From positions 1 to 63,739 of the IMG/VR virus record IMGVR_UViG_3300047560_001667: a stretch of DNA of 63,739 nucleotides; one strand, given 5' to 3'. The translations under genes were made by a program, and so were the position numbers. Under the pieces are notes generated by a model that was given only the letters and a program-made list of their open reading frames with translations, had not been told where the DNA came from and made no database searches. Below are positions 3,940 through 57,755 of the stretch, one piece after another (position 1 is the first letter of the stretch; each line of letters begins with the position of its first letter). This DNA is from a virus (taxonomy: Duplodnaviria > Caudoviricetes).

Positions 3940-4800
3940 ATGGCGAATAAATTATTCATAAGTGATGGGAAGTTTTATGTCGTAGCTGCATCACAGAAAA
4001 TAGTTAAACTCCCCCATGATAATACTTTAGAGGTCGTCATCATTGATGCCGCACTTGAGTTTGTGGAAAAGGAAGGTATTAAATCACAATCATTAGCTGT
4101 CGTCATGGCGAACAGAATTGATGGGGATGTGTTCTCATTCACGGTAACTGAAGAATCTATCTTTGGGGATATTGTTCACAATGAGCAAAAGCTCAAAACG
4201 TATCTTGATAAATGCTATGCACATTCTTTACCTTTCTTTGGGCTTGTAACGCGACTTAACATTGTAGGTGAAGACATATCACCCTACATTGCGTTCTCGG
4301 CTGTACGCGCCTTAGATGAGCTTGAGTATCAGGCTGTGCTAAAACAGCGTAAAACGCAAGAATGCGTAGACGCAGTGGGCACTAGTATCTCTTCTATTCC
4401 CATAGGGATTGAGCATTTAAAAGATGGTGTAACTGAAGTTGATCGAGCGTCGTCATTTTTAAATGAAAGTATTTTCAACTTTGTCAAAGCGAACAAACAG
4501 CTCATCCTTATTTCAAATAAAAATAAACGTCATACCGTACTTGAGCAAACAGTAGTTAATGATGTTCCCGTTGCACGTTACGCCAAAGATACAGGTGTGT
4601 TCTATATTGCTATAGCGCAGTTCGATGCGTGGTGTAGAGCTAACGATATAGACCCTTCAGACGTAATCGAAGCGGCTAAAAAAGAAGTGGATGGAGTCAT
4701 TCGATTAGTTAAGCTTGACATGACTTCCGCCAATGGCGTAAAATGCCTGCAAATTGATTTTGACAAACTCTCCCTCGATGAGTCCGCTTTGTTGATTTAA
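3940..4800 (+). CDS. hypothetical protein
   Basis: 286-aa ORF followed by a terminator; no confident family. Confidence 0.7.
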   Translation: MANKLFISDGKFYVVAASQKIVKLPHDNTLEVVIIDAALEFVEKEGIKSQSLAVVMANRIDGDVFSFTVTEESIFGDIVHNEQKLKTYLDKCYAHSLPFFGLVTRLNIVGEDISPYIAFSAVRALDELEYQAVLKQRKTQECVDAVGTSISSIPIGIEHLKDGVTEVDRASSFLNESIFNFVKANKQLILISNKNKRHTVLEQTVVNDVPVARYAKDTGVFYIAIAQFDAWCRANDIDPSDVIEAAKKEVDGVIRLVKLDMTSANGVKCLQIDFDKLSLDESALLI

Positions 4801-4836
4801 TTGTGCTTCATGTGTTACTCCTCTCTTAAAGACTTT

Positions 4837-4876
4837 AACCCCACAGAATTAAACTGCCTGTGGGGTCTTTTTTTTA
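4837..4876 (+). terminator. intrinsic terminator between convergent transcription units
   Basis: ACCCCACAG...CTGTGGGGT stem followed by a T-tract. Confidence 0.8.
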
Positions 4877-4877
4877 T

Positions 4878-7800
4878 CTACTGCCCTGTGGCTTTTCTGT
4901 AATACAAGTCACCTTTTCTAGCTAAATCATTAATCTCAGCTTTAATCACTTCGATTCTATCCGCACGTTGCTGAGCTGTATATCTGCTATTTGGCGCATT
5001 TTTAATAGAGTTGATAATTTTATTCTTTTCAGTTATTTGTTTTTTAATTCTATTCAACTCAGTGGACGCTCGATACAATGCTTTATTGTTGTCATCACTC
5101 ATTAAGTCGTTGTACTCAGCGCTCTTACCATCTTTCTTAAACTTCTCAGCTTGAGCGTGTATTTCATCAGCACGTTTAGTTTCATTGTAAAAATCATTGA
5201 GGAAAACACTTTTATTTGGATTAGGGAACATATTCCCAAATAAATAACTACTAGATGTAATATCTTTAGCAGGTTTTTCAATGAGGTCAGGATTAAGCTC
5301 TTGAGCAAACTCATCTATACCCCACAGCCCTATACCTGCCACTGTCCCACCAACAGAACTGAAAATATGATCTATTTTCACAGGTGATAAGTTCATAACT
5401 TCAGGTAAATTCTTAGCAATCATATTAGCCAATTGCGATGAGCGTTGTTCACCTCTGTATTTAACAGGTACGGCTTGTTCAGCTGGCGTTTCAATACCAC
5501 GTCCACTATGGAAATCCATGTTCAGTTTTTGTTGTAATGGTTCTTTAAGCACAGCTGGGATAGGTACATAGGTTTCACCGATACCCGCAGGGAGCATACC
5601 TTTACCTAATTCACCAGCAGCTTTAAGGAGTTGATCGCCAGTGCGTGTTTCAAAACTCGCTTGCATTACCATTTCAGGTAGCCATTTTAAGAACGACAAC
5701 TCTTTTGGTAATGGTAAATTAACAAAGTCATCATCACCTGTAGGGATTGAAATCGAATTGTAATCAGATTGGTTTTGATACGCCTTGTTGTCTAAATAAT
5801 AGAATGACAATGCCCCTGCAAAGAACGCAGCTTGCGCGGCTTTTACTGCAACCTTTTTCTTAAACGCTTTGCGTTGAGATTTAGGTACACCAACACCCAT
5901 AACCGCTCTACGCATTTGCTCAAGACCGAAGATTTGAGATGCTAAGAATGGAATGGTGTATTTCAACTGCTGGAAAGTTTCAGATGTTCCACGCATAGCT
6001 GGTAAGAACGATTCACGCGCTTTAGCTATTGCATAAGAGTCAGCTTGTGAATCTGACATCTTCAATTCTTTCTTCGCTTTAGAATACGCCATTTCATAAA
6101 CATTCACTTTAGTGGCTGCGTCAATCATGCTATGCGCATAGGCACTTGCATTTTCAGCTTTCGCCTGTGCTTTTTTAAGTTTGTTTTGCTCAGTTAAACC
6201 TTTGCCAATATTCTTAACAAAGCCCGCATGAGTAGATGCGTAATTAGGGTCATGTACAACACCGACAATTCCATTACGAATTAACTTCTCTGTAATTTCT
6301 TTTTTGCGACCTTTCATAGGCGTACTTAGAAATTTCATAGTATCTAACGGGGATACCCATCCTAAGTCATTTGTCAAAGACGCTTGAAGTGGATTTCGAA
6401 TTGCCTCCGCTTTAAAGAATCCTGGTGTATTCGTAAAGAACATAGAGTTTAATCGAGCAAAGCTACGAGGTATTTTATACAAATTACCAAGCTCGTTATG
6501 TATCATGGTATATGCCGGAATCAATGACGGGTCATCGAGTTTATAGAATACGCGTTTACCATTTTCCATCACAGCCACATTACCGCGTTCAAATTTCTTA
6601 GACGGATCAACTTTATGCCCAGCACCTAAATTTGAAATTTGCTCTGTTGCGGCTTTCTTCGCCTCATTATCCATAACAGCAGTTGCACAACTCGCAAGGT
6701 GGTTCTTCATATTCTCCCATGCGTTGATAGTATGCTCAGAGCCTGTTCTTTCTCTGAATACTTTTGTCATGGTATTGCCAATTTTGATACCACCTTTCTT
6801 CTCAACACCTGTGTGTTCAAAGATTTCCTCATTAATCATAAAGTTTGGGATATAAAAATCATTTGTTTTCCATTCTCTATGTTGTTGAGCAGAGATTAAC
6901 CCAGACTTGTACATCTGATCGACAACTGAATGATTGATAGCTGTCCATGAGTTAATTGCATCTCGAAGTGCTGGATACTTAGCACACAGCGCGTCCGCTT
7001 GCGCGACTTCTTTATGGAGAAGCGAAGGGTCTTTTCTGTATTTTTCAGGTAGCTTCTTAGGATCACGTTTAGAAAGCGATTCTTTATCATAAACGTACAT
7101 CATATCTTGCACGGCTTTACGACCCCAATCCCCTACAGAATCCGCCATCTCTACCATAGTTTTTAAAGACACATTGCGAGTTCGACCTGTACTCACCATT
7201 TTTAAAGGCACTTCAACTGCTGATACAGTTCCATCTTCATTAACTTTAAACGCACCTGTATCAATAATGGCGTTTGCAATGTTATGCCCTTGCAGTTTTT
7301 GCGCTTGAAGCATATCTGCTCGAAGTTTACCTAAATGGTGATAACCGGGTAGATTCTCATCAAGAAACTTAGTTAACTTGTGCGAACCGTTAACCCAAGT
7401 ATTCATGAAATCATCAAACCGATTTTCCCATGTTTTATTTTCTTTTTCTTCCTTCTCTGGTCTTTGCATTGTATTGCCAGTTTCAGATAAGGCTTTGGCT
7501 TCATCGGGAATGCGAGAATAGCGATTCTCAGCTTTAGGCGTAGTTACCCCTAAAATTATCGCATCTTCTTTAGCAACACCTTGAGAGGTATATGGCGCAG
7601 TTTCTTTACGTTGTTCTGGTGTAAAGTCTTTGCGAGCTTCAACGTCCCTAGATTCTACTTCACCTGAAATTAGTTGATACACGCGGTGCTTAATTCCATC
7701 AGGAATCAACTTATTTAACTTTCTACTATGTTCTCTAATGTCACTTTCAGTTTCATTTTTTAACGATCTAAGTCTAGTTAACTGATTTTTAAGAGTAGAT

Positions 7801-10800
7801 AATTCAGCCTCTTGTTTATTAACAGCCTTTTTAATTGCGGAATAAGTGTCTACATACTCCATAGCCTCGGAATGAAGTCTATCATTTTCTTCATATATGG
7901 TATCTACATCACGTTTTATTTTATCTCTATTTGGATCATCCCATCGGTAAAGATTACGTTGCTCATTCAAAGTCGCTATGCGTTCGTTATTTTTTGCAAT
8001 AGCATCTTTAACGTATTGATATTTTTTTTCATTTTCATTTCGAGTTTTAAATTCAATAGATTTTATTTCCGATTCAACAGATTTCATTTTTGAATCAATA
8101 TTTTCTTTAATTTTGGATAACCTATCGTCAATCTTTTCTAATCTACTTAGTTCTTTATGGATAGCGTTTATTTCAGAAATACTTTCACGAGTATCAGCTA
8201 TACCTTTTTTATCCAATGATTTTATGAATCCAATCTTTTCATTATCTATCTGTTTCTCTAATGTGTTAAGTAAATTTTCATCATAGTTTTTAATAGTATT
8301 ATAGTTACCTCCTAGTGCAAAACCTTCCTTAGTTTGAACCCAATGTTGCAACTCATGAATCATAGTGCTTCTTGGATTTTGAGCATAAGGAGTAACAACT
8401 ATTTTATTTTTGTCTTCATTAAACCACCCTTGCTGACTTTTAGACCAATCAAGGAAAGGTGCTCTTATTTCAAAAGATATATCCTTAGCGTCAGGGTACA
8501 ATTTAAATAATTCGACACTATCAAATACATCTCCTACTTTTAAATCAGTTGTTTTAGGAATAGATTTAAAATCATTTTTAAAATCAGCGTTTCTATCATC
8601 AATTTCAAATCGCCATTTATTATCGTGACCTAAAAACCATCCCGTATCTTTGCGAATAGATTCAGAATCAACACCTTCTTTCTCCATTTTTATAGCGCGG
8701 TCTAGTGCTGACTTATCTGCGCCTTTAGCTTTTTGACCAACATAAGAGTACGCATTTCCATTTCTAGTGTTACGTTTCGCTGATCTCACTTGATGACGCA
8801 CTGCTTTCTCAGCAAGATGACGTAAATCATGCTCAGTCACTTTAAGATTAGTACCTAAATGCTGACGAGCAAAGTTGCGAATAGCTGACGTAATACGTTT
8901 GACAATAGGTAGATTAGGACTATGCTCAACTAAATACGCAATAACTTCCTCAGCCTTTAAATGATCTGGTATATCACTAGGTACTTTTTTGCGAGCTTCT
9001 TCAAACGGTTTGCCCGCTTGCGTTAGAGCCTGAGATTTAATGTTCTTCCAAACTTTAGAGCCAAGCATTTTCTCCATACCCGCATGTACACCAACCTCAT
9101 GTAAGAACACACCATGTAGGTTTTCTGGTGTAAGCTTGTTTGCCACAAAGTGAGCAACACCTTCAGGAGTAACCATCCCTTTAACAGTTTCTGGTGAGAT
9201 GACATCAGCAGGGAGCGTTTCATGCGTATCATGTATTACCGCTTTTCCGCTATCCACCATCTTGCGCATCTCAGGTGTCATGTGCTCTTTCAAAGACTCT
9301 ACAGTATGACCTGTATCATGCTCTGTCGGTGCAGTTTCTTCATAGACATGATTGTTGTCTTCAGTAGGGGGTGTTTCTTCTGATGTTGCAGGTTCTTCAG
9401 GGATTGTTTCTTCTTTAGCTACAGGTTTCTCAGCTTTTGGGCGAATCTCTTGTTCAGTATAAGGTACGCGCTCACTAGGTGCTTCTGGATTCCAATCGGG
9501 ACTTTCTTTTGCGTGTGTATCTAAAATAGGACCCATATCAGCTTGAGTGATTTCTTGAGCACCTGTTTTTGCATTAGAGTATTGGTCATACACTGCTTTT
9601 CGACCTTCAACGCCTAAATCTCTAAATTTAGGCAACTCACTTTCTTTAGACTTTTTAACATACGCATCATACGCTTTAGCCGCTGGGACGAGTTCAGGTT
9701 TTAAATCCTCGTAAGGATGCTCAGGTTTAGTGGCTTTCTTGTATAACGCTTCAGCTTGTTTAGTAGGGACAGGTTCGCCCGTTGTTAAGTGTGGGAAAGT
9801 ATGTTCGTCTTTAGCGGTAAGGGTACGCCACTCTTTCTTAGCCTCTTCAGAAATGTTCTCATAAGGGTGAGCTTCTTCACCAAAGGTGCTATGCCACGCT
9901 TCTTTTTCAGCTTGCAAAGGTTTTTGAGAAGGTCCTGCGATTTCATCAAACGCTTTGATAACTTTCTTAGTGGGTACAAGTATCTCTGGATTCTTCTTAT
10001 CTGGTGTTGATATTTTATTTAATTCACCAATCTTTTCAGAGAAGGTGTCTTTAGCTTCATCGGGTAAATTCTCCCAACTAGGCGAGTCTTCATCTGCGCG
10101 ACCAGTGTGCGCACGCATATCTTCCCAAACCGCAGCAGGATCAGCAATTTTATTCGGATGAAAAGGTGTTGTGCGCTCAGCTTCAGCTTGTTTAGCCGCT
10201 TGCTCTTGAGCTAAGTTCTCTCTAGCAGCAGTGGCTTCAGGTGTTGCGCCAATATCAGATACTCTTTGCTCTGCTTGCTCTTTGGCTATTTTCTCTGGGT
10301 TATGACCTACTGCGTGTAGTGCGCCAAACACAGGGGCTAAAGGTAAATTCTCTTTAAACCCTTCTGCTATATCACCTAGTGATTGTTGATCTTCACCAGT
10401 ACCTAGACGCATAGCCGCTTCACGTCCCGCCATAAAGGTAGGGACAGTCACCGCATTTGACGCTGTACCAGCCGCAAAGTCACGAAGTAAGTTTAACTTA
10501 GTGCGTTCATCAGGTAACTTATCTAATGCTGCTCTTGCTGCATCTTGCTCGGCTTGGTGAATAGCCGCTTGACCTTCAGCGGTATTAATCGTCCCATCAG
10601 CTGTACGCTTTGCAATCTCAGCTTCTCTAGCTAACGCAGCTTCTTTAGCAACCATCTCTTCAGCTGCTTTAGCAGTAACGCGACCTGTTGCTTTTTCAAC
10701 TAACTTAGCCGCACCTTTGCCAAGTAAACCTGTTCCAGGTACACCTGCTACATCTAACGCAGCTGTACCTAAACCTGTCGCCACTGCTCTTTCTGGTGAT

Positions 10801-11384
10801 AACTCAGGGTTGCGCTCACGCGCTTCGCCTGTGTTAGCAAGTGCTTGGGTTGCAGCTAGACCTAGACCACCTAATGTACCTACTGTGCCCATCGTACCCG
10901 CTACAGGTAATGCCGCCATCGCTGGCGCATAACCAGCCATACTACCTAAAGGTTCAGCTACATTTTTAGATAACCATGTAGGAATTGCCCCAGCTACACC
11001 GTTCTCAGCTTTTTTCTTTTCATATTCTTCTTGAGTAATATCTTCAGCAAAATGCTTCTTATTTCTTTTTGCTTCTTCAGCTTTGGCTTTCATCTCCTCA
11101 GCTGTTTTCTTCATACCAAAAAGCTCTGCACCAGTAGCCACACCTTCTTCTACTTTAGGGATAATATCCTCTAAGGCTGATTTGGCATGAGGGAGGAAGC
11201 CTGTACGCTCTTCGTGTACTTTTTCATTAAATTTAGGTAAAAGAAATTTAAGAATTTGGTCATCTGTAGCACCAGCACTCATAGCGGCAGGGAGATCAAA
11301 CCCAACCTTGTCGCTTAGAAAGCCCATGATTTGTTCGTCAGTTGCCCCTGCGTTTCTAGCAGATTCTATATCAAATGTCGCCAT
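4878..11384 (-). CDS. large polyvalent internal virion/ejection protein (LPD23-like zincin module, LPD38-like C-terminus)
   Basis: 2168 aa; GWFLGHDNKWRFEIDD, HELQHWVQ.KEGF..GGN and GEVESR; second HEVGVH...EEVIAY motif; last gene of the structural block. Confidence 0.8.
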   Translation of the reverse strand: MATFDIESARNAGATDEQIMGFLSDKVGFDLPAAMSAGATDDQILKFLLPKFNEKVHEERTGFLPHAKSALEDIIPKVEEGVATGAELFGMKKTAEEMKAKAEEAKRNKKHFAEDITQEEYEKKKAENGVAGAIPTWLSKNVAEPLGSMAGYAPAMAALPVAGTMGTVGTLGGLGLAATQALANTGEARERNPELSPERAVATGLGTAALDVAGVPGTGLLGKGAAKLVEKATGRVTAKAAEEMVAKEAALAREAEIAKRTADGTINTAEGQAAIHQAEQDAARAALDKLPDERTKLNLLRDFAAGTASNAVTVPTFMAGREAAMRLGTGEDQQSLGDIAEGFKENLPLAPVFGALHAVGHNPEKIAKEQAEQRVSDIGATPEATAARENLAQEQAAKQAEAERTTPFHPNKIADPAAVWEDMRAHTGRADEDSPSWENLPDEAKDTFSEKIGELNKISTPDKKNPEILVPTKKVIKAFDEIAGPSQKPLQAEKEAWHSTFGEEAHPYENISEEAKKEWRTLTAKDEHTFPHLTTGEPVPTKQAEALYKKATKPEHPYEDLKPELVPAAKAYDAYVKKSKESELPKFRDLGVEGRKAVYDQYSNAKTGAQEITQADMGPILDTHAKESPDWNPEAPSERVPYTEQEIRPKAEKPVAKEETIPEEPATSEETPPTEDNNHVYEETAPTEHDTGHTVESLKEHMTPEMRKMVDSGKAVIHDTHETLPADVISPETVKGMVTPEGVAHFVANKLTPENLHGVFLHEVGVHAGMEKMLGSKVWKNIKSQALTQAGKPFEEARKKVPSDIPDHLKAEEVIAYLVEHSPNLPIVKRITSAIRNFARQHLGTNLKVTEHDLRHLAEKAVRHQVRSAKRNTRNGNAYSYVGQKAKGADKSALDRAIKMEKEGVDSESIRKDTGWFLGHDNKWRFEIDDRNADFKNDFKSIPKTTDLKVGDVFDSVELFKLYPDAKDISFEIRAPFLDWSKSQQGWFNEDKNKIVVTPYAQNPRSTMIHELQHWVQTKEGFALGGNYNTIKNYDENLLNTLEKQIDNEKIGFIKSLDKKGIADTRESISEINAIHKELSRLEKIDDRLSKIKENIDSKMKSVESEIKSIEFKTRNENEKKYQYVKDAIAKNNERIATLNEQRNLYRWDDPNRDKIKRDVDTIYEENDRLHSEAMEYVDTYSAIKKAVNKQEAELSTLKNQLTRLRSLKNETESDIREHSRKLNKLIPDGIKHRVYQLISGEVESRDVEARKDFTPEQRKETAPYTSQGVAKEDAIILGVTTPKAENRYSRIPDEAKALSETGNTMQRPEKEEKENKTWENRFDDFMNTWVNGSHKLTKFLDENLPGYHHLGKLRADMLQAQKLQGHNIANAIIDTGAFKVNEDGTVSAVEVPLKMVSTGRTRNVSLKTMVEMADSVGDWGRKAVQDMMYVYDKESLSKRDPKKLPEKYRKDPSLLHKEVAQADALCAKYPALRDAINSWTAINHSVVDQMYKSGLISAQQHREWKTNDFYIPNFMINEEIFEHTGVEKKGGIKIGNTMTKVFRERTGSEHTINAWENMKNHLASCATAVMDNEAKKAATEQISNLGAGHKVDPSKKFERGNVAVMENGKRVFYKLDDPSLIPAYTMIHNELGNLYKIPRSFARLNSMFFTNTPGFFKAEAIRNPLQASLTNDLGWVSPLDTMKFLSTPMKGRKKEITEKLIRNGIVGVVHDPNYASTHAGFVKNIGKGLTEQNKLKKAQAKAENASAYAHSMIDAATKVNVYEMAYSKAKKELKMSDSQADSYAIAKARESFLPAMRGTSETFQQLKYTIPFLASQIFGLEQMRRAVMGVGVPKSQRKAFKKKVAVKAAQAAFFAGALSFYYLDNKAYQNQSDYNSISIPTGDDDFVNLPLPKELSFLKWLPEMVMQASFETRTGDQLLKAAGELGKGMLPAGIGETYVPIPAVLKEPLQQKLNMDFHSGRGIETPAEQAVPVKYRGEQRSSQLANMIAKNLPEVMNLSPVKIDHIFSSVGGTVAGIGLWGIDEFAQELNPDLIEKPAKDITSSSYLFGNMFPNPNKSVFLNDFYNETKRADEIHAQAEKFKKDGKSAEYNDLMSDDNNKALYRASTELNRIKKQITEKNKIINSIKNAPNSRYTAQQRADRIEVIKAEINDLARKGDLYYRKATGQ

Positions 11385-53486: not shown

Positions 53487-54592
53487 TGGCTGCCCATGCT
53501 GAGCTATCCGCGAGCGGTAGTGCAACGTGGCTCAACTGCGCAGGCTCAGTTGAAGCGCAGCGCCAGTATGCACGCACCAGCTCTCGCTTCGCTGATGAGG
53601 GTACAGCTGCACACTCTCTAGCCGATATTTGTTTAACTAAAGGCGTATCACCATTTGATTATGAGAATGTCTTAGATCCTGAGACAGGGATTACCATCAC
53701 ACATGAGATGTGCCTGCATGTGCAAACTTACTTAGACTACATCGCTGAGTTTTCTGGTGAGAAGTTTTTTGAGCAACGCGTAGACTACAGTGATTATGCA
53801 CCTGAAGGTTTTGGTACCGCTGACTGCATCATCATTGACGATACGACGCTGCATATCATTGATCTCAAGTACGGCAAAGGTATCAAGGTCTATGCTGATA
53901 GCACACAGTTATCTATCTATGCGCTCGGTGCTGTACATGAGTTCGGTTTTATCTACGATATTAAGACAATCAAAAAGCATATCGTGCAACCGCGTCTCGA
54001 TAACATCGATGAACACGAGATGACTATCGATGAACTATATCAATTCGGTGAAGAGGTGAAAGCAAAAGCTAAGCTCGCTATGCTACCCGATGCGCCGCGT
54101 ACACCTGGGGAGAAGCAATGCCAATGGTGTAGTCACAAAGCACGCTGCCCTGAGTTACTCAAACTAACGCAAGACACCTTGCTTGGTGACTTTGATAACT
54201 TGTCTCAGGTGAACACCTTATCCGATGAGCAGCTAAGCAATGCCCTCAGTAATGCAGCACTCATCAAGTCATGGCTCTCTGCTGTAGAAGATACCGTCAG
54301 AGCTAAGCTTGAGAACGGTGAAGCCTTTGATGGTTTTAAAATAGTTGAAGGTCGCAGCAGTCGTGAGTGGGCTGACCAGTCTATCGCTGAAGCGGTACTC
54401 TCTAAAGACTACGCTAACTACGAGCTGTATGAAACATCATTCATCTCTGTAGCTAAAGCTGAGAAGCTAGTGGGTAAGAAGAATATGGAAGAGCTTAATG
54501 CGATCATCATTAAAAAGTCTGGTAAGCCGACACTTGTACCGGCTTCAGATAAACGTCCTTCACTGGGTATCTGTGCAAACGACTTTGATTAA
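53486..54592 (+). CDS. DUF2800 PD-(D/E)xK (Cas4-like) nuclease
   Basis: HAELSAS...W.NC, EGTAAH, FGTAD.I...IIDLKYGKG, QL..YALG, CQWC....CP. Confidence 0.9.
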   Translation: MAAHAELSASGSATWLNCAGSVEAQRQYARTSSRFADEGTAAHSLADICLTKGVSPFDYENVLDPETGITITHEMCLHVQTYLDYIAEFSGEKFFEQRVDYSDYAPEGFGTADCIIIDDTTLHIIDLKYGKGIKVYADSTQLSIYALGAVHEFGFIYDIKTIKKHIVQPRLDNIDEHEMTIDELYQFGEEVKAKAKLAMLPDAPRTPGEKQCQWCSHKARCPELLKLTQDTLLGDFDNLSQVNTLSDEQLSNALSNAALIKSWLSAVEDTVRAKLENGEAFDGFKIVEGRSSREWADQSIAEAVLSKDYANYELYETSFISVAKAEKLVGKKNMEELNAIIIKKSGKPTLVPASDKRPSLGICANDFD

Positions 54593-54601
54593 AAATAAAA
54601 G

Positions 54602-54630
54602 TTGACACCTCAAAAGTGTCAGCGTACAAT
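54602..54630 (+). promoter_or_regulatory. sigma70 promoter with overlapping palindromic operator
   Basis: TTGACA-17 bp-TACAAT; TGACAC-N7-GTGTCA overlaps the -35. Confidence 0.7.
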
Positions 54631-54678
54631 TGACATCGGCAACTTAGCCAATACAACTTAATTTAAAAGGATACAATC

Positions 54679-55194
54679 ATGAGTTCTAAATTAAAATTAC
54701 AAAATGTACGTTTGTCTTTTCCATCTTTGTTTAACAAAGCTGTGTTCAACGGCAACGTAACAAAATATGAAGCCACATTTTTAATGCCTAAAGGTTCACC
54801 TCAGCACAAACAAACGCAAGCAGCCATCGATGCGTTCATTGCTGAGAAGTTCCAAGGCAAAGCCCCTAAAGGTTTGAAGATCACCGCTTTTACTGACGGT
54901 GATGAAAAAGATTATGATGGTTATGAAAACCAAATGGCGTTAAAAGGTGGTAGCACTAAGCGTGTACTGCTTATCGACAAAGACAAAACACCATTGACCG
55001 AAGAAGATGGCCGCCTCTATGCAGGTTGTTATGTCAACGCTATCGTGGAGTTTTGGTATAGTGACCATCCATTAGGTGGTAAACAGATTCTAGGCAACTT
55101 ACTTGGCGTTCAGTTCGCTAAAGATGGCGAACCGTTTGGTGATAACACCGGAGCAAGTATCGATGACTTTGATGAGATCGATGACGAGTTCTAA
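54679..55194 (+). CDS. DUF2815 single-stranded DNA-binding protein
   Basis: NVRLSFP.LF, DGD, YAGCYVNA, LLGVQFAKDGEPFG, acidic tail ending in F. Confidence 0.9.
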   Translation: MSSKLKLQNVRLSFPSLFNKAVFNGNVTKYEATFLMPKGSPQHKQTQAAIDAFIAEKFQGKAPKGLKITAFTDGDEKDYDGYENQMALKGGSTKRVLLIDKDKTPLTEEDGRLYAGCYVNAIVEFWYSDHPLGGKQILGNLLGVQFAKDGEPFGDNTGASIDDFDEIDDEF

Positions 55195-55204
55195 GTAATA
55201 CCTA

Positions 55205-55885
55205 TCTGCACCTCAGTAATGGGGTGCAGAGCTATCAGTGAAACATCCTGTATTTACTCTAGGGGCGTTTCTTGCTACAGACACACACTCAACCGCAGGG
55301 TGTTTCACTGATGGTTAACACCATAAAAGAGCAAACAGCATAGAAATATGCTCAATGGTTGTGCGGACGATGGGTGATATAGGACGCACTGACAGCTTGG
55401 AAAGACAAGCATTATCAAATACTATTTAATTGGGTGTAAAGCTCAGGGTTAATCGAAATGTCACTCGACGGAGTGAAAACTAGATTGCGATAATTTTAAT
55501 TAAACACCTAGATAGTGCGCATAACTAGGCAGTAATTAAAAGAATGCTAGAGCGTCCCATGTGATTGGGAAGGTCACCCGTGTGGGTCACCCAATTAAAT
55601 AGTATTTATGACAGCTTGGAAAGACAAGCACTATCAATGAGTAGGTTTGTGGGTGTCCTCACAGACCCAAAAAAGGTGTGAGCAGTCGTGTAATGATGTA
55701 GTTTCACGTTAAGTAACAGACTTACTCATTGATAGCTTGGAAAGACAAGCACTATGAATAAAAGCCGTTAGAAAAGGTGCATAAATACAAACAATTATGC
55801 TGGGCGTGAAGCGGCTTTTCTTGATAGTTCTAAGTAACATCTTTCTTTTAACCAAGACGATATATCAAGCGACTTAGTTCTATCA
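55205..55885 (+). ncRNA. putative array of structured ncRNA cassettes delimited by a conserved hairpin repeat
   Basis: Four approx. 20-bp closing stems with G-U pairs on the + strand; three 28-nt repeats; no ORF of 60 aa or more in about 750 bp. Confidence 0.65.
55390..55757 (+). repeat. three copies of TGAYAGCTTGGAAAGACAAGCAYTATSA
   Basis: 55390-55417, 55609-55636, 55730-55757. Confidence 0.92.
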
Positions 55886-55889
55886 TCAC

Positions 55890-55927
55890 AACCTCTATGC
55901 TTTCCTCTATGAGCATAGAGGTTTTTT
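55890..55927 (+). terminator. intrinsic terminator closing the ncRNA region
   Basis: AACCTCTATGCT...AGCATAGAGGTT followed by TTTT. Confidence 0.8.
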
Positions 55928-55952
55928 CACATCTATTATAAGGATACCCCTT

Positions 55953-57755
55953 ATGGCTATTATCATTGATACAGAATGCTACAAAAACTACTGGTTATTC
56001 GCCGCGCTCAACACAGAGACTAAACGTGTACGCCAAGTAGAAATTTACGACAACGCGTCTCTATCTGAAGACGATATTAAACTCATACGCGATACGATGA
56101 AGCGAGAAACAGTTAGCTTCAATGGTATCAAGTATGACCTACCTATGATTACCGCTGCGCTATCTGGCTATACGACCAAAGCACTACACAAACTCAGCAA
56201 TGAACTCATCTTATCTAATCTCCCTTCTTGGCACATTGTCCGTCAGCACGAGCTAAACGTAGCGGACTACACTCACATAGACTTAATTGAAATCGCTATC
56301 GGTCAAGGGAGTCTTAAAGTGTATGGGAGTAGACTGCATTGCAAAACCCTGCAAGATTTACCTATTGAACCCGATGAGATTATCTCCCCTGCTCAACGTG
56401 AGCAACTTAAAGTGTACTGTCGCAATGACCTTGAGTTAACGCAGCTGCTCTACACTACCCTGCTACCTCAAATTGAACTGCGCAAATCGATGAGTAAGCA
56501 ATACGGTATTGATCTTAATTCTAAGTCTGATGCGCAAATTGCTGAAGCACTCATCAAATCTGAGATGCAATCACTCTATAAGATACCTTTAGCTAAGTTC
56601 AAAGCGAAAAGCTACGATGCGCGGCACAGCTTCAACTATCGTGATCCAAAGATTATCAAGTTCAAATCAGCTGAGCTAAACGCTGTGTTTAAAAGATTAC
56701 TCACTGAGAAGTTCACCATTGCAGATAGCGGTACACTTGAATGTCCTAAATGGTTGAGTGAGCGTATCACTATAGGAACAACCGAGTATCAAATGGGTAT
56801 CGGTGGTATTCACTCCTGTGAAAAAGCACAGTACATCACAAGCAATGACGAGTACGCACTATCTGATTTTGATGTTGGCTCATTCTATCCGAGCATCATT
56901 ATGCAGCAACAGCTTTACCCAGATACATTAGGTAAAGACTTCTTAACTCTCTATAAGTCTATTATCAATCGCCGTATTGAAGCTAAACGCAATGGGGATA
57001 AAGTCACAGCGGACACACTTAAAATTTGTTTGAACGGGAGCTACGGCAAGTTCGGCAGTAAGTACAGTTTCCTATATTCACCTGAGCTGTTATTGCAGAC
57101 TACGATTACAGGTCAACTATCTTTGCTCATGCTAATCGAAACGCTTGAAGGTAATGGCATTAAAGTGGTGAGTGCGAATACCGATGGGATTGTTGTTTAT
57201 TATAAGTACACCGAGTTAGACAAAGTACATGATTTGCTTTGGGATTGGGAGCTTCAGACATCTTATCAACTTGAGCAAACAGATTACCAAGAAATAGCAT
57301 CAAGAGATGTGAACTCATACCTTGCCATTAAAACGGATGGTAGCTACAAAGGTAAAGGTATCTTCACCGCTGAGTCTATTGGTAAGAATCCTGATGGTCG
57401 CATTGTGTATGACGCAGTAACGCAGCGGGTTATCAATGGTACACCAATCCAGCAAACTATTTCCGAGTGTAAAGACATCACTAAGTTCATTAGCTGTCGA
57501 AGAGTTACAGGTGGTGCTGTGTTTGATGGTGAGTACTTAGGTAAAGCCATTCGTTTCTATCACAGCAATGACCCTGCTTTGCAAGATAAACAATTAGAGT
57601 ACAAGAAGAACGGAAACAAAGTCCCACTCTCACAAGCGTGTCGCCCTTGCATGGTACTGCCTGATACATTCCCTGTGGACGTGGATTTAAATTACTACAT
57701 TACAAAAGCAAACGAATTACTAGAGGATATTGGTTATGTTAGAAAAGCAAGTTGA
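55953..57755 (+). CDS. DNA polymerase, family B-like, with 3'-5' exonuclease
   Basis: IIIDTECY (ExoI), FNG..YD (ExoII), YC.ND (ExoIII); DVGSFYPSII (A), K..LNGSYGK (B), SANTDG (C). Confidence 0.88.
   Translation: MAIIIDTECYKNYWLFAALNTETKRVRQVEIYDNASLSEDDIKLIRDTMKRETVSFNGIKYDLPMITAALSGYTTKALHKLSNELILSNLPSWHIVRQHELNVADYTHIDLIEIAIGQGSLKVYGSRLHCKTLQDLPIEPDEIISPAQREQLKVYCRNDLELTQLLYTTLLPQIELRKSMSKQYGIDLNSKSDAQIAEALIKSEMQSLYKIPLAKFKAKSYDARHSFNYRDPKIIKFKSAELNAVFKRLLTEKFTIADSGTLECPKWLSERITIGTTEYQMGIGGIHSCEKAQYITSNDEYALSDFDVGSFYPSIIMQQQLYPDTLGKDFLTLYKSIINRRIEAKRNGDKVTADTLKICLNGSYGKFGSKYSFLYSPELLLQTTITGQLSLLMLIETLEGNGIKVVSANTDGIVVYYKYTELDKVHDLLWDWELQTSYQLEQTDYQEIASRDVNSYLAIKTDGSYKGKGIFTAESIGKNPDGRIVYDAVTQRVINGTPIQQTISECKDITKFISCRRVTGGAVFDGEYLGKAIRFYHSNDPALQDKQLEYKKNGNKVPLSQACRPCMVLPDTFPVDVDLNYYITKANELLEDIGYVRKAS

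Follow-up and report, generated by a model that had tools for sequence, protein, structure and literature searches.

The virus record IMGVR_UViG_3300047560_001667 (Duplodnaviria; Caudoviricetes) is a complete phage genome of 63,739 nucleotides (nt) with direct terminal repeats, which was analyzed over its full length and is referred to here as the window. Between its gene for the single-stranded DNA-binding protein (SSB), which places the phage near Vibrio phages, and the gene for a 600-amino-acid (aa) replication protein lies a 758-nt spacer that carries three copies of a small hairpin and five stem-closed units, cassettes A to D and hairpin E (Table 1). By its architecture and evolutionary behavior, this spacer is well supported as a real, strongly structured, modular RNA locus organized around an uncatalogued but widespread phage hairpin. 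A preliminary description of the same stretch had interpreted it as a polycistronic precursor cut into several small RNAs, with the constant hairpin as a protein-binding or processing handle, and this interpretation as a whole is partly supported by the present analysis. The three repeat copies, the closing stems of cassettes A to D, the GUAA hairpin that opens the array, its terminator, and the promoter-like site upstream were all found where that description had placed them.

In Vibrio phage LP.1, the annotation of the SSB homolog is that of a nucleic acid-binding OB-fold protein, and the annotation of the homolog of the 600-aa protein is that of a ribonuclease H-like domain protein; the gene for the 600-aa protein has 58 related loci. 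The preliminary description had called this gene a DNA polymerase: that it encodes a replication protein holds, and its polymerase identity comes down to weak family-B matches (E value of 4.3e-4 for PF03175, below the cut-off). The promoter-like site at 54602 is the only strong one on the + strand within positions 54300 to 56200; the terminator closing the array, which is also present in the relatives L123 and L124, ends 27 nt before the 600-aa gene, with no promoter in between. The lack of a long open reading frame (ORF) in the spacer, noted earlier, is borne out by the longest ATG-initiated ORF on the + strand, which has only 30 aa; a 48-aa ORF with a TTG start on the − strand (55709-55855) overlaps hairpin copy 3 and cassette D. 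When folded as RNA, the whole region reaches −255.1 kcal/mol (z = −9.05) on the + strand and −221.7 kcal/mol (z = −8.01) on the − strand, a difference of 33 kcal/mol in favor of the former. Searches of the whole window with the Rfam 15 covariance models produced 0 matches at the gathering score (the best subthreshold E values, 0.34 to 6.7, were all far below gathering), and the array could, as before, be assigned to no named RNA family. Neither tRNA nor tmRNA was detected in the window by ARAGORN, and there was no match to RF00005 at E values up to 10.

Table 1. Features of the SSB-to-replication gene spacer and its immediate surroundings (WC, Watson-Crick pairs)
Feature	Position	Strand	Remarks
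Putative sigma-70-like promoter	54602..54630	+	TTGACA-17-TACAAT; 11 of 12 consensus positions; 5' of the SSB gene
SSB gene	54679..55194	+	Enc34-type OB fold; Pfam PF10991, E value 3.9e-29
Opening hairpin	55205..55230	+	Arms 55205-55215/55220-55230, 10 WC + 1 G-U; GTAA (GUAA) loop
Cassette A, 85 nt	55231..55315	+	Stem 55231-55250/55296-55315, 17 WC + 3 G-U
Linker without closing stem	55316..55389	+	Unrelated sequence in L123; missing from L124
Leader hairpin copy 1	55390..55411	+	TGACA, GCTTG stem, GAAAGA loop, CAAGC stem, A
Cassette B, 197 nt	55412..55608	+	Multi-hairpin; stem 55417-55436/55588-55607, 20 WC, perfect
Leader hairpin copy 2	55609..55630	+	
Cassette C, 105 nt	55631..55735	+	Stem 55631-55650/55716-55735, 18 WC + 2 G-U
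Leader hairpin copy 3	55730..55751	+	TGATAG variant; first 6 nt are the 3' end of clamp C
Cassette D, 78 nt	55752..55829	+	Stem 55751-55769/55810-55828, 16 WC + 1 G-U + 2 mismatches
Hairpin E	55822..55885	+	TGATAGTTCTAAGT.../...ACTTAGTTCTATCA, 12 of 15 pairs WC; absent from the preliminary description
Intrinsic terminator	55888..55925	+	Closes the array; 12-bp perfect arms 55890-55901/55912-55923, then TTTTTT
600-aa replication protein gene	55953..57755	+	Weak family-B polymerase matches only

Structured RNA cassettes

The sequence of the outer clamp is constant between the cassettes (5'-CTATCA... / ...TGATAG-3'), a regularity that the preliminary description had not noted. All non-Watson-Crick pairs in stems A and C are G-U pairs, and only on the + strand; this had been pointed out before, and base-by-base pairing agrees with it. 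Cassette C provides the richest comparative record. Its core is an H-type pseudoknot composed of the helices P1 (55651-55654/55665-55668; GGGU/ACCC) and P2 (55658-55663/55677-55682; CUCAYA/URUGAG) and an A-rich linker. In 12 distinct homologs, the closing stem and the pseudoknot are paired in 99.7% of 335 cells, and 9 of the 30 pairs have changed on both sides, a number reached in 0 of 500 shuffles; sliding the partner by 1 to 3 columns reduces the two-sided changes to 0. The same core is present in 33 viral contigs, located in this phage family ∼190 nt upstream of the homolog of the 600-aa gene.

The remaining units are represented by fewer relatives. Cassette B has a counterpart, with 85% identity over 191 nt, in the relative L160, likewise located between two hairpin copies; of the 58 predicted pairs of the cassette, 6 are retained through two-sided changes. 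Cassette A (fold of −34.9 kcal/mol, z = −5.79) has homologs in L123 and L124 that add one compensatory pair, a weak covariation signal. It adjoins the opening hairpin, which occupies the same leader position as the GAAAGA hairpin does elsewhere in the array and is kept in L123 and L124 with another loop. Cassette D (fold z = −3.13) is 99% identical over 80 nt to its counterpart in L123, which is preceded there by a different hairpin. Hairpin E, retained in L123 and L124, reuses as part of its 5' arm the TGATAG that ends clamp D. This TGATAG (55822-55827) can pair either with 55752-55757, the outer part of clamp D, or with 55880-55885, within hairpin E, the two pairings being mutually exclusive; the same competition exists in L124 between clamp A and hairpin E.

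Because the mismatches are restricted to G-U pairs and compensatory changes occur in C, B, and A, the cassettes are best regarded as independent structured RNAs of the + strand, as the preliminary description had it. They are not copies of a miniature inverted-repeat transposable element, a possibility which that description had named against itself: all of them differ in sequence, none recurs in the genome, and the longest repeats of their sequences elsewhere in it (11 to 12 nt) are within the shuffle range. Nor is the TTGATAG at the junction of cassette D a new target-site duplication, such as a transposon bounded by terminal inverted repeats would leave; it is the clamp end that all cassettes have in common. 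The earlier suggestion of antisense guides as cargo was not borne out with respect to the phage's own genome, in which the longest complementarity is 13 nt, compared to 11 to 16 nt in shuffled sequences.

The leader hairpin and its distribution

The repeat unit TGAYAGCTTGGAAAGACAAGCA is found in three copies, all on the + strand, and nowhere else in the 63.7-kb phage. Repeat finding delineated it as a 35-nt family with starts at 55384, 55603, and 55724 (spacings of 219 and 121), and its exact 18-nt core, AGCTTGGAAAGACAAGCA, is located on the + strand at 55394, 55613, and 55734. Allowing up to 3 mismatches uncovered no further matches to this core in the 63,739-nt window (shuffle mean, 0.10). 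When the scan was relaxed to any stem of 5 bp around a GARAGA loop, the same three copies were the only ones in the window with 5 pairs, the mean of 200 shuffles being 0.54. A BLAST search with the 35-nt unit, a very short query, found no match among 50,697 phage records at E values up to 1 with the low-complexity filter on.

The motif proved to be common in other sequence collections and to covary there (counts of stems, loops, flanks, and contexts in this section are among the matches listed). In a scan with the flank and the loop fixed, four stem pairs unconstrained, and one position barred from its consensus base, 21 of 68 distinct 22-mers pair fully, versus ∼1.5 expected by chance (our own arithmetic), and every variant present in at least 5 contexts pairs fully. 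Twelve of the stems have 5 Watson-Crick pairs and nine have 4 plus a G-U pair; none combines 4 Watson-Crick pairs with A-C, and 3 carry another mismatch. At the same locus in relatives, CTTG/CAAG is replaced by ATTG/CAAT and by CCG/CGG. The loop, in turn, is nearly invariant: with the stem fixed and the loop left free, it reads GAAAGA in 94 and GAGAGA in 10 of 110 distinct contexts. When a GC-rich stem and the loop were fixed and the flanks left free, the five 5' bases were T in 54, G in 73, A in 55, C in 68, and A in 61 of 103 cases, and the base 3' of the stem was most commonly A (45 of 103). The 5' flank has no general pairing partner: candidate partners were seen downstream in 8 and upstream in 9 of 192 cases, versus 3 to 22 for controls. 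Upstream of TGACA the sequence is near-random, with no conserved signal and no conserved −10-like element.

The features that define the hairpin are, then, a single-stranded UGRCA, any 5-bp stem with a G-C pair closing at the loop, a GARAGA loop, and a 3' A; all three window copies fit this definition, copy 3 with a TGATA flank. A covarying stem, a fixed loop, and a fixed 5' flank support the view of the constant hairpin as an RNA element under selection in its own right, in line with the preliminary description. The combination of UGRCA with a freely paired stem and a GARAGA loop is the signature of a site that is read by a protein or RNA partner, rather than of a promoter. It is highly improbable that the unit is a promoter whose −35 element would be TGACA and whose spacer would contain the hairpin, each cassette being a transcription unit of its own in the manner of PeSL promoter-terminator composites. 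The string nTGACA-N18-TATCAA/TATGAA can indeed be read in this phage family, and some copies come after terminator-like hairpins, but TATCAA does not end in the T expected of a −10 element, phages outside this family have unrelated sequence in the six positions that follow the motif, no −10-like peak occurs at a distance that a promoter could use, and T is not enriched immediately before TGACA. Moreover, the motif is found in hosts with different promoter types, and stem covariation with G-U pairs would be unexpected in a spacer. In the absence of a conserved −10 after the motif, the sigma-70 reading was rejected; sigma-54 and MotA-box readings were dropped by eye on account of their misfitting spacing. 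A search of the genome for the T7-type RNA polymerase family gave no match, but its control matched in no genome either.

The 18-nt core is present in at least 119 IMG/VR viral contigs of 4 to 322 kb, and a 20-mer was found in 12 contigs of bacterial genomes or metagenome-assembled genomes, where ∼1 chance match is expected (our own arithmetic). The labels of the latter include Flavobacterium, Clostridia, Neisseriaceae, Thiothrix, Aureispira, Limnobacter, Parabacteroides, Methylococcaceae, and others. In a small sample of 6 small contigs, the 8 large ORFs matched DNA ligase, tail, terminase, and portal proteins, and none matched an RNA replicase. The hairpin is followed by tRNAs, by tRNA-like sequences missed by ARAGORN, by stem-closed units beginning with CTATCA, or by an AT-rich leader with a ribosome-binding site and a start codon. 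Among 197 distinct contexts, 23 have an ARAGORN tRNA starting within 15 nt, 24 a tRNA-like 5' half (by a crude pattern only), 38 a CYRTSA clamp, and 22 an ORF. Where ARAGORN tRNAs start within 60 nt downstream, 25 of 28 begin 4 to 12 nt past the stem (mode, 4 to 6 nt), while the ends of upstream tRNAs lie at scattered distances from the hairpin. The hairpin and long coding ORFs point in the same direction in 110 of 134 instances. The repeat of the spacer is thus a copy of a widespread phage RNA hairpin that is usually found 4 to 12 nt before tRNA 5' ends, a relationship that was not part of the preliminary description. Searches of the literature with motif strings and descriptive terms found no description of this motif; most subscription journals lay outside the search, so that it may have been described elsewhere.

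These positions also bear on the idea of a CRISPR-like mini-array, or of solitary repeats acting as decoys against host CRISPR-Cas systems. Such a reading can point to three direct repeats of ∼28 nt, each with a hairpin and separated by unique sequence, and is nonetheless barely conceivable, given that the would-be spacers are 197 and 99 nt long (CRISPR spacers usually have ∼26 to 72 nt), rich in structure, and retained as RNAs by other phages, that the stem varies through compensatory changes while the loop is fixed in phages of many hosts, and that single copies precede tRNAs.

Directly after a hairpin copy there is, at L045:9431-9520 and with the same sequence in L188, a tRNA-like RNA, not called by ARAGORN, that appears by eye to consist of acceptor, D, and T arms with no anticodon arm. 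The contig L226 (5272-5401, − strand) carries a pair of GC-rich hairpin copies separated by 50 nt, with a terminator after them and a third copy ∼220 nt further on. This two-hairpin unit is 96.7% identical in the isolated Stenotrophomonas phages BUCT708 and BUCT709 only, where it is unannotated or hidden under a "hypothetical protein."

Gain and loss of cassettes

The spacers between the SSB gene and the next gene in relatives of this phage, 24 of them distinct, range from 52 to 1954 nt and contain 0 to 3 hairpins, the window having the most; in the isolated Vibrio phage LP.1, the two genes are 78 nt apart. Together they hold 35 clamp-closed cassettes with differing cargoes, all of which start with CTATCA or CTATGA and end with TGATAG (TGATGG in cassette A of the window). 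In L123 (94% protein identity), cassette A is followed by unrelated sequence and then by D; in L124 (87% protein identity), A is joined directly to E. In three relatives (L126, L160, and L172), the same clamps enclose tRNA-like RNAs that score above the Rfam tRNA threshold (31.9 to 35.5 bits), tRNA being the only Rfam match in the relatives; their leaders and trailers pair as an 11- to 12-bp extension of the acceptor stem, and no CCA is encoded. This content of the clamps, too, goes beyond the preliminary description.

The preliminary description had proposed comparing related phages for cassette gain or loss at the repeat boundaries, and this is precisely what near-identical phage contigs from two other studies (X3 and X4) display, with breakpoints falling exactly in the 22-nt repeat or in a 7-nt clamp end. 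Each of them skips 55390-55608 with a 22-nt overlap that equals the repeat, with 0 other differing letters on both sides of the skip. The X4 contig additionally skips 55729-55820, with the 7-nt overlap TTGATAG, which leaves the order A, linker, hairpin, C, E. As a result, the X3 contig lacks cassette B and the X4 contig lacks both B and D. Logan assemblies use 31-letter words; since the 22-nt repeat is shorter than that, these joints are taken as real molecules and not as graph artifacts.

Joints of this kind could also be expected if the repeats were recombination sites acting at the DNA level, in an attC- or PeSL-like cassette exchange to which RNA structure would be secondary. The exact position of the breakpoints agrees with this explanation, as do the mosaic combination of the left and right flanks of the motif in other contigs, the independent assortment of cargo and leader, and the role in mediating such indels reported for PeSL motifs of T4-like phages (PMC4122927). 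Nevertheless, it is quite improbable. The complete genome encodes no tyrosine recombinase (PF00589), in a search whose control was positive in 14 of 14 genomes; the occurrence of G-U without A-C, the co-orientation with genes, and the fixed distance to tRNA 5' ends indicate a constraint on the transcript; and recombination between short homologies alone would yield the observed joints. Thus, the recombinase search, the missing −10 element, the G-U versus A-C count, and the position relative to tRNAs leave the DNA-site, promoter, and CRISPR-like explanations failing the tests that define them.

In a number of relatives, a second small hairpin, with a GCCGG stem, an AGATCAGYR loop, and a CCGGC stem, replaces the GAAAGA hairpin before CTATCA clamps. 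It is found at L123:3598-3616 (before cassette D), in L125, L128, L134, and L160, and at many other loci, in all in at least 120 viral contigs and at least 132 distinct contexts. Downstream of it there is usually CACCA(A/C) or CATC... and then a terminator, a tRNA, or a gene start; upstream there is often AATGCGCAGGCTGATGCGC, containing a GCTGAT that is complementary to the loop. This hairpin had no match in Rfam or in the papers searched. A unit of ∼250 nt at L365:11780-12025 (− strand) combines a GC-rich GAAAGA hairpin, a AATGTGCAGGCTGATGCGC element, and, at its end, the second hairpin with an intrinsic terminator, and is possibly a complete gene for a small RNA, composed of the two motifs.

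Proposed role of the array

We infer transcription from position 54602, cleavage of the transcript, the identity of the hairpin's partner, and the functions of the cargoes from position, covariation, and analogy. On these grounds, the array can be viewed, tentatively and with slightly less than even confidence, as the untranslated tail of the SSB transcript that harbors exchangeable structured RNAs, in which the hairpin serves as a punctuation mark or handle and the clamps as processing stems. The transcript would start at 54602, continue into the array, and end at 55888-55925, and each module would comprise a leader hairpin, a long clamp helix with constant outer pairs, and a module-specific cargo RNA. 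The stem of the hairpin would only have to pair, its loop and single-stranded 5' flank being fixed, and the hairpin could act as RNA-level punctuation at the 5' boundary of stable-RNA units, where it would bind or position a conserved host factor; in other phages, the cut by RNase P would have to fall 4 to 12 nt downstream of it. The clamps would be double-stranded processing stems that release the cargoes in the RNase III style known from ribosomal RNA stalks, and the 22-nt hairpin unit and the 7- to 8-nt clamp ends would provide short homologies for the gain, loss, and swap of modules between phages.

Several observations weigh against this proposal. Cassette A, hairpin E, and the terminator persist in L123 and L124, the closest relatives, although the GAAAGA hairpin is missing there. 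One 184-nt cargo is found behind four different leaders (the GAAAGA hairpin, its 4-bp GC version, another hairpin, and a terminator); with leaders that interchangeable, the cargo is not strictly dependent on the GAAAGA hairpin. The hairpin by itself is weak, with a folding energy of −7.1 kcal/mol that is equaled by 10 of 200 shuffles, and the genome search found no RNase III encoded by the phage. The motif sample is biased by the exact patterns used for fetching, the motif counts are minimum figures, and 90 of the 197 contexts among the matches listed could not be classified. In 19 of these 197, the hairpin lies 20 to 45 nt ahead of an ordinary gene, where processing of the tRNA type makes little sense. 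When ORFs 20 to 65 nt after a hairpin copy were scanned (L200, L247, L301, L207, L063, and L088), 4 of 9 turned out to be recombination or replication genes, coding for a Gp2.5-like SSB or annealing protein, a Sak4-like annealing protein, a Cas4-domain exonuclease, and a DNA repair protein.

The main rival explanation would make the hairpin a nut- or put-like antitermination or anti-Rho element that, as nascent RNA, modifies the host RNA polymerase transcribing it, either directly or by way of Nus factors, so that the enzyme passes the untranslated cassettes and the terminator at 55888-55925 and arrives at the next gene. This is unlikely. The shape resembles lambda boxB in its 5-bp stem and purine-rich, GNRA-like loop; the only strong promoter is 5' of the SSB gene, none being located in the 27 nt that separate the terminator from the 600-aa gene; the hairpin occurs ahead of untranslated RNAs as well as of recombination and replication genes; and a universal partner such as RNA polymerase would account for its conservation across phyla. 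However, the terminator and the gene order are the same in L123 and L124, which do not have a GAAAGA hairpin, the matches listed show no conserved boxA-like element next to the hairpin, and a fixed distance of 4 to 12 nt to tRNA starts would not be expected of such an element. Furthermore, known pairs of N and boxB diverge fast even among lambdoid phages, whereas the loop of this hairpin is fixed.

The locus has its nearest known analogs in RNase III stalks, PeSL, boxB, the T4 tRNA operon, and integron cassettes; it is neither a PeSL, a tRNA operon, nor an integron array, and probably does not belong with the other two either. RNase III cuts double-stranded helices of about two turns that flank a stable RNA, such as the stems of pre-16S and pre-23S rRNA, and sites between genes of phage T7. 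Like these stalks, the array has helices of ∼20 bp formed by the sequences that flank a stable RNA in a polycistronic transcript, and in relatives such helices enclose tRNAs; the helices, of 16 to 20 or more pairs, covary and are candidate RNase III substrates. Unlike the stalks, the array has an outer clamp that is constant across unrelated cargoes, a conserved hairpin ahead, and modules that are exchanged, and cleavage is putative.

In phage lambda, the nut site consists of boxA and boxB and is served by the N protein and Nus factors; boxB itself is a 5-bp stem with a purine-rich loop of the GAAA type, located in nascent phage RNA upstream of early genes. The leader hairpin shares the shape of the 5-bp stem and purine-rich loop and differs in having a hexaloop, UGRCA as a flank in place of boxA, a position 4 to 12 nt before tRNAs, and conservation far beyond the lambdoid phages; we know of no N-like partner for it. 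Coprocessing of stable RNAs is familiar from the tRNA operon of phage T4 (species 1 and 2), as well as from the "tRNA punctuation" of mitochondria. The array parallels that operon, where non-tRNA stable RNAs occupy tRNA positions in one precursor and are released by tRNA-processing enzymes; in contrast to it, the window has no tRNA, and the units are clamped and headed by a shared hairpin. Integrons are ordered arrays of gene cassettes with attC sites and the IntI tyrosine recombinase. Their resemblance to the array lies in the order of exchangeable cassettes, in imperfect inverted repeats as bounds, and in presence or absence between relatives; there is, however, no integrase here, the cargo is RNA and not ORFs, the inverted repeats surround the whole cargo, and there are signals of selection at the RNA level.

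PeSL elements consist of a terminator stem-loop with a sigma-70 promoter (TTGACA-N17-TATAAT) and flank protein ORFs (PMC4122927). Like the leader motif, the PeSL and PmSL elements of T4-like phages are short and conserved, mark the boundaries of modules in hyperplastic regions, and go along with indels that distinguish close relatives (PMC4122927). The leader motif shares with them the indels at the motif; it differs in having no conserved −10 element after it among the matches listed, in the covarying RNA stem, in framing RNAs, and in being shared across phages of many phyla. Theta ribozymes, which are minimal ribozymes resembling that of hepatitis delta virus, are also small conserved RNA elements that serve end formation on phage tRNA units, but they are self-cleaving and located 3' of the tRNAs (PMC10879173), while the hairpin is on the 5' side and too small for a ribozyme. 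The paper on these ribozymes makes no mention of an upstream hairpin, the words "hairpin," "upstream," and "leader" being absent from it (PMC10879173).

A more far-reaching version of the punctuation proposal, which must be regarded as doubtful, would make the GARAGA hairpin a universal adaptor to a host component that is conserved across phyla, plugging structured RNAs into the maturation of stable RNA, with the cargoes forming a library of traded small RNAs. The RNase P holoenzyme or RNA polymerase would be candidates for the partner, and the cargoes (tRNAs, tRNA mimics, and pseudoknots) could be, for example, decoys or substitutes that counter host defenses targeting tRNA or other RNA. If the punctuation proposal holds, phages of many bacterial phyla would use one small RNA signal to mark the starts of stable-RNA units, and structured RNAs would be traded as cassettes in the way genes are, adding an RNA layer to the mosaicism of phage genomes. 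It would also imply an unrecognized interaction with a conserved host factor and a catalog of conserved phage small RNAs. The window could serve as a test bed for these ideas: it is a complete 63.7-kb genome with the hairpins confined to a single spacer and with natural variants that lack single cassettes.

Additional observations

In L124, an extra 92-aa ORF is present between the array terminator and the next gene (1945-2241), with the ribosome-binding sequence TATAAGGACAC duplicated on both sides of it. In ∼20 relatives (L145 to L160 and L169 to L172), the match to the 600-aa protein is split at residue ∼350 by 780 to 860 nt of extra DNA, as in L145, where the match covers 4001-5062 and 5899-6636; the insertion may be an intron, an intein, or an inserted gene. 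Elsewhere in the window, the − strand of 4878-11384 encodes a 2168-aa ORF with LPD23 and LPD38 domains and weak matches to metallopeptidases and helicases.

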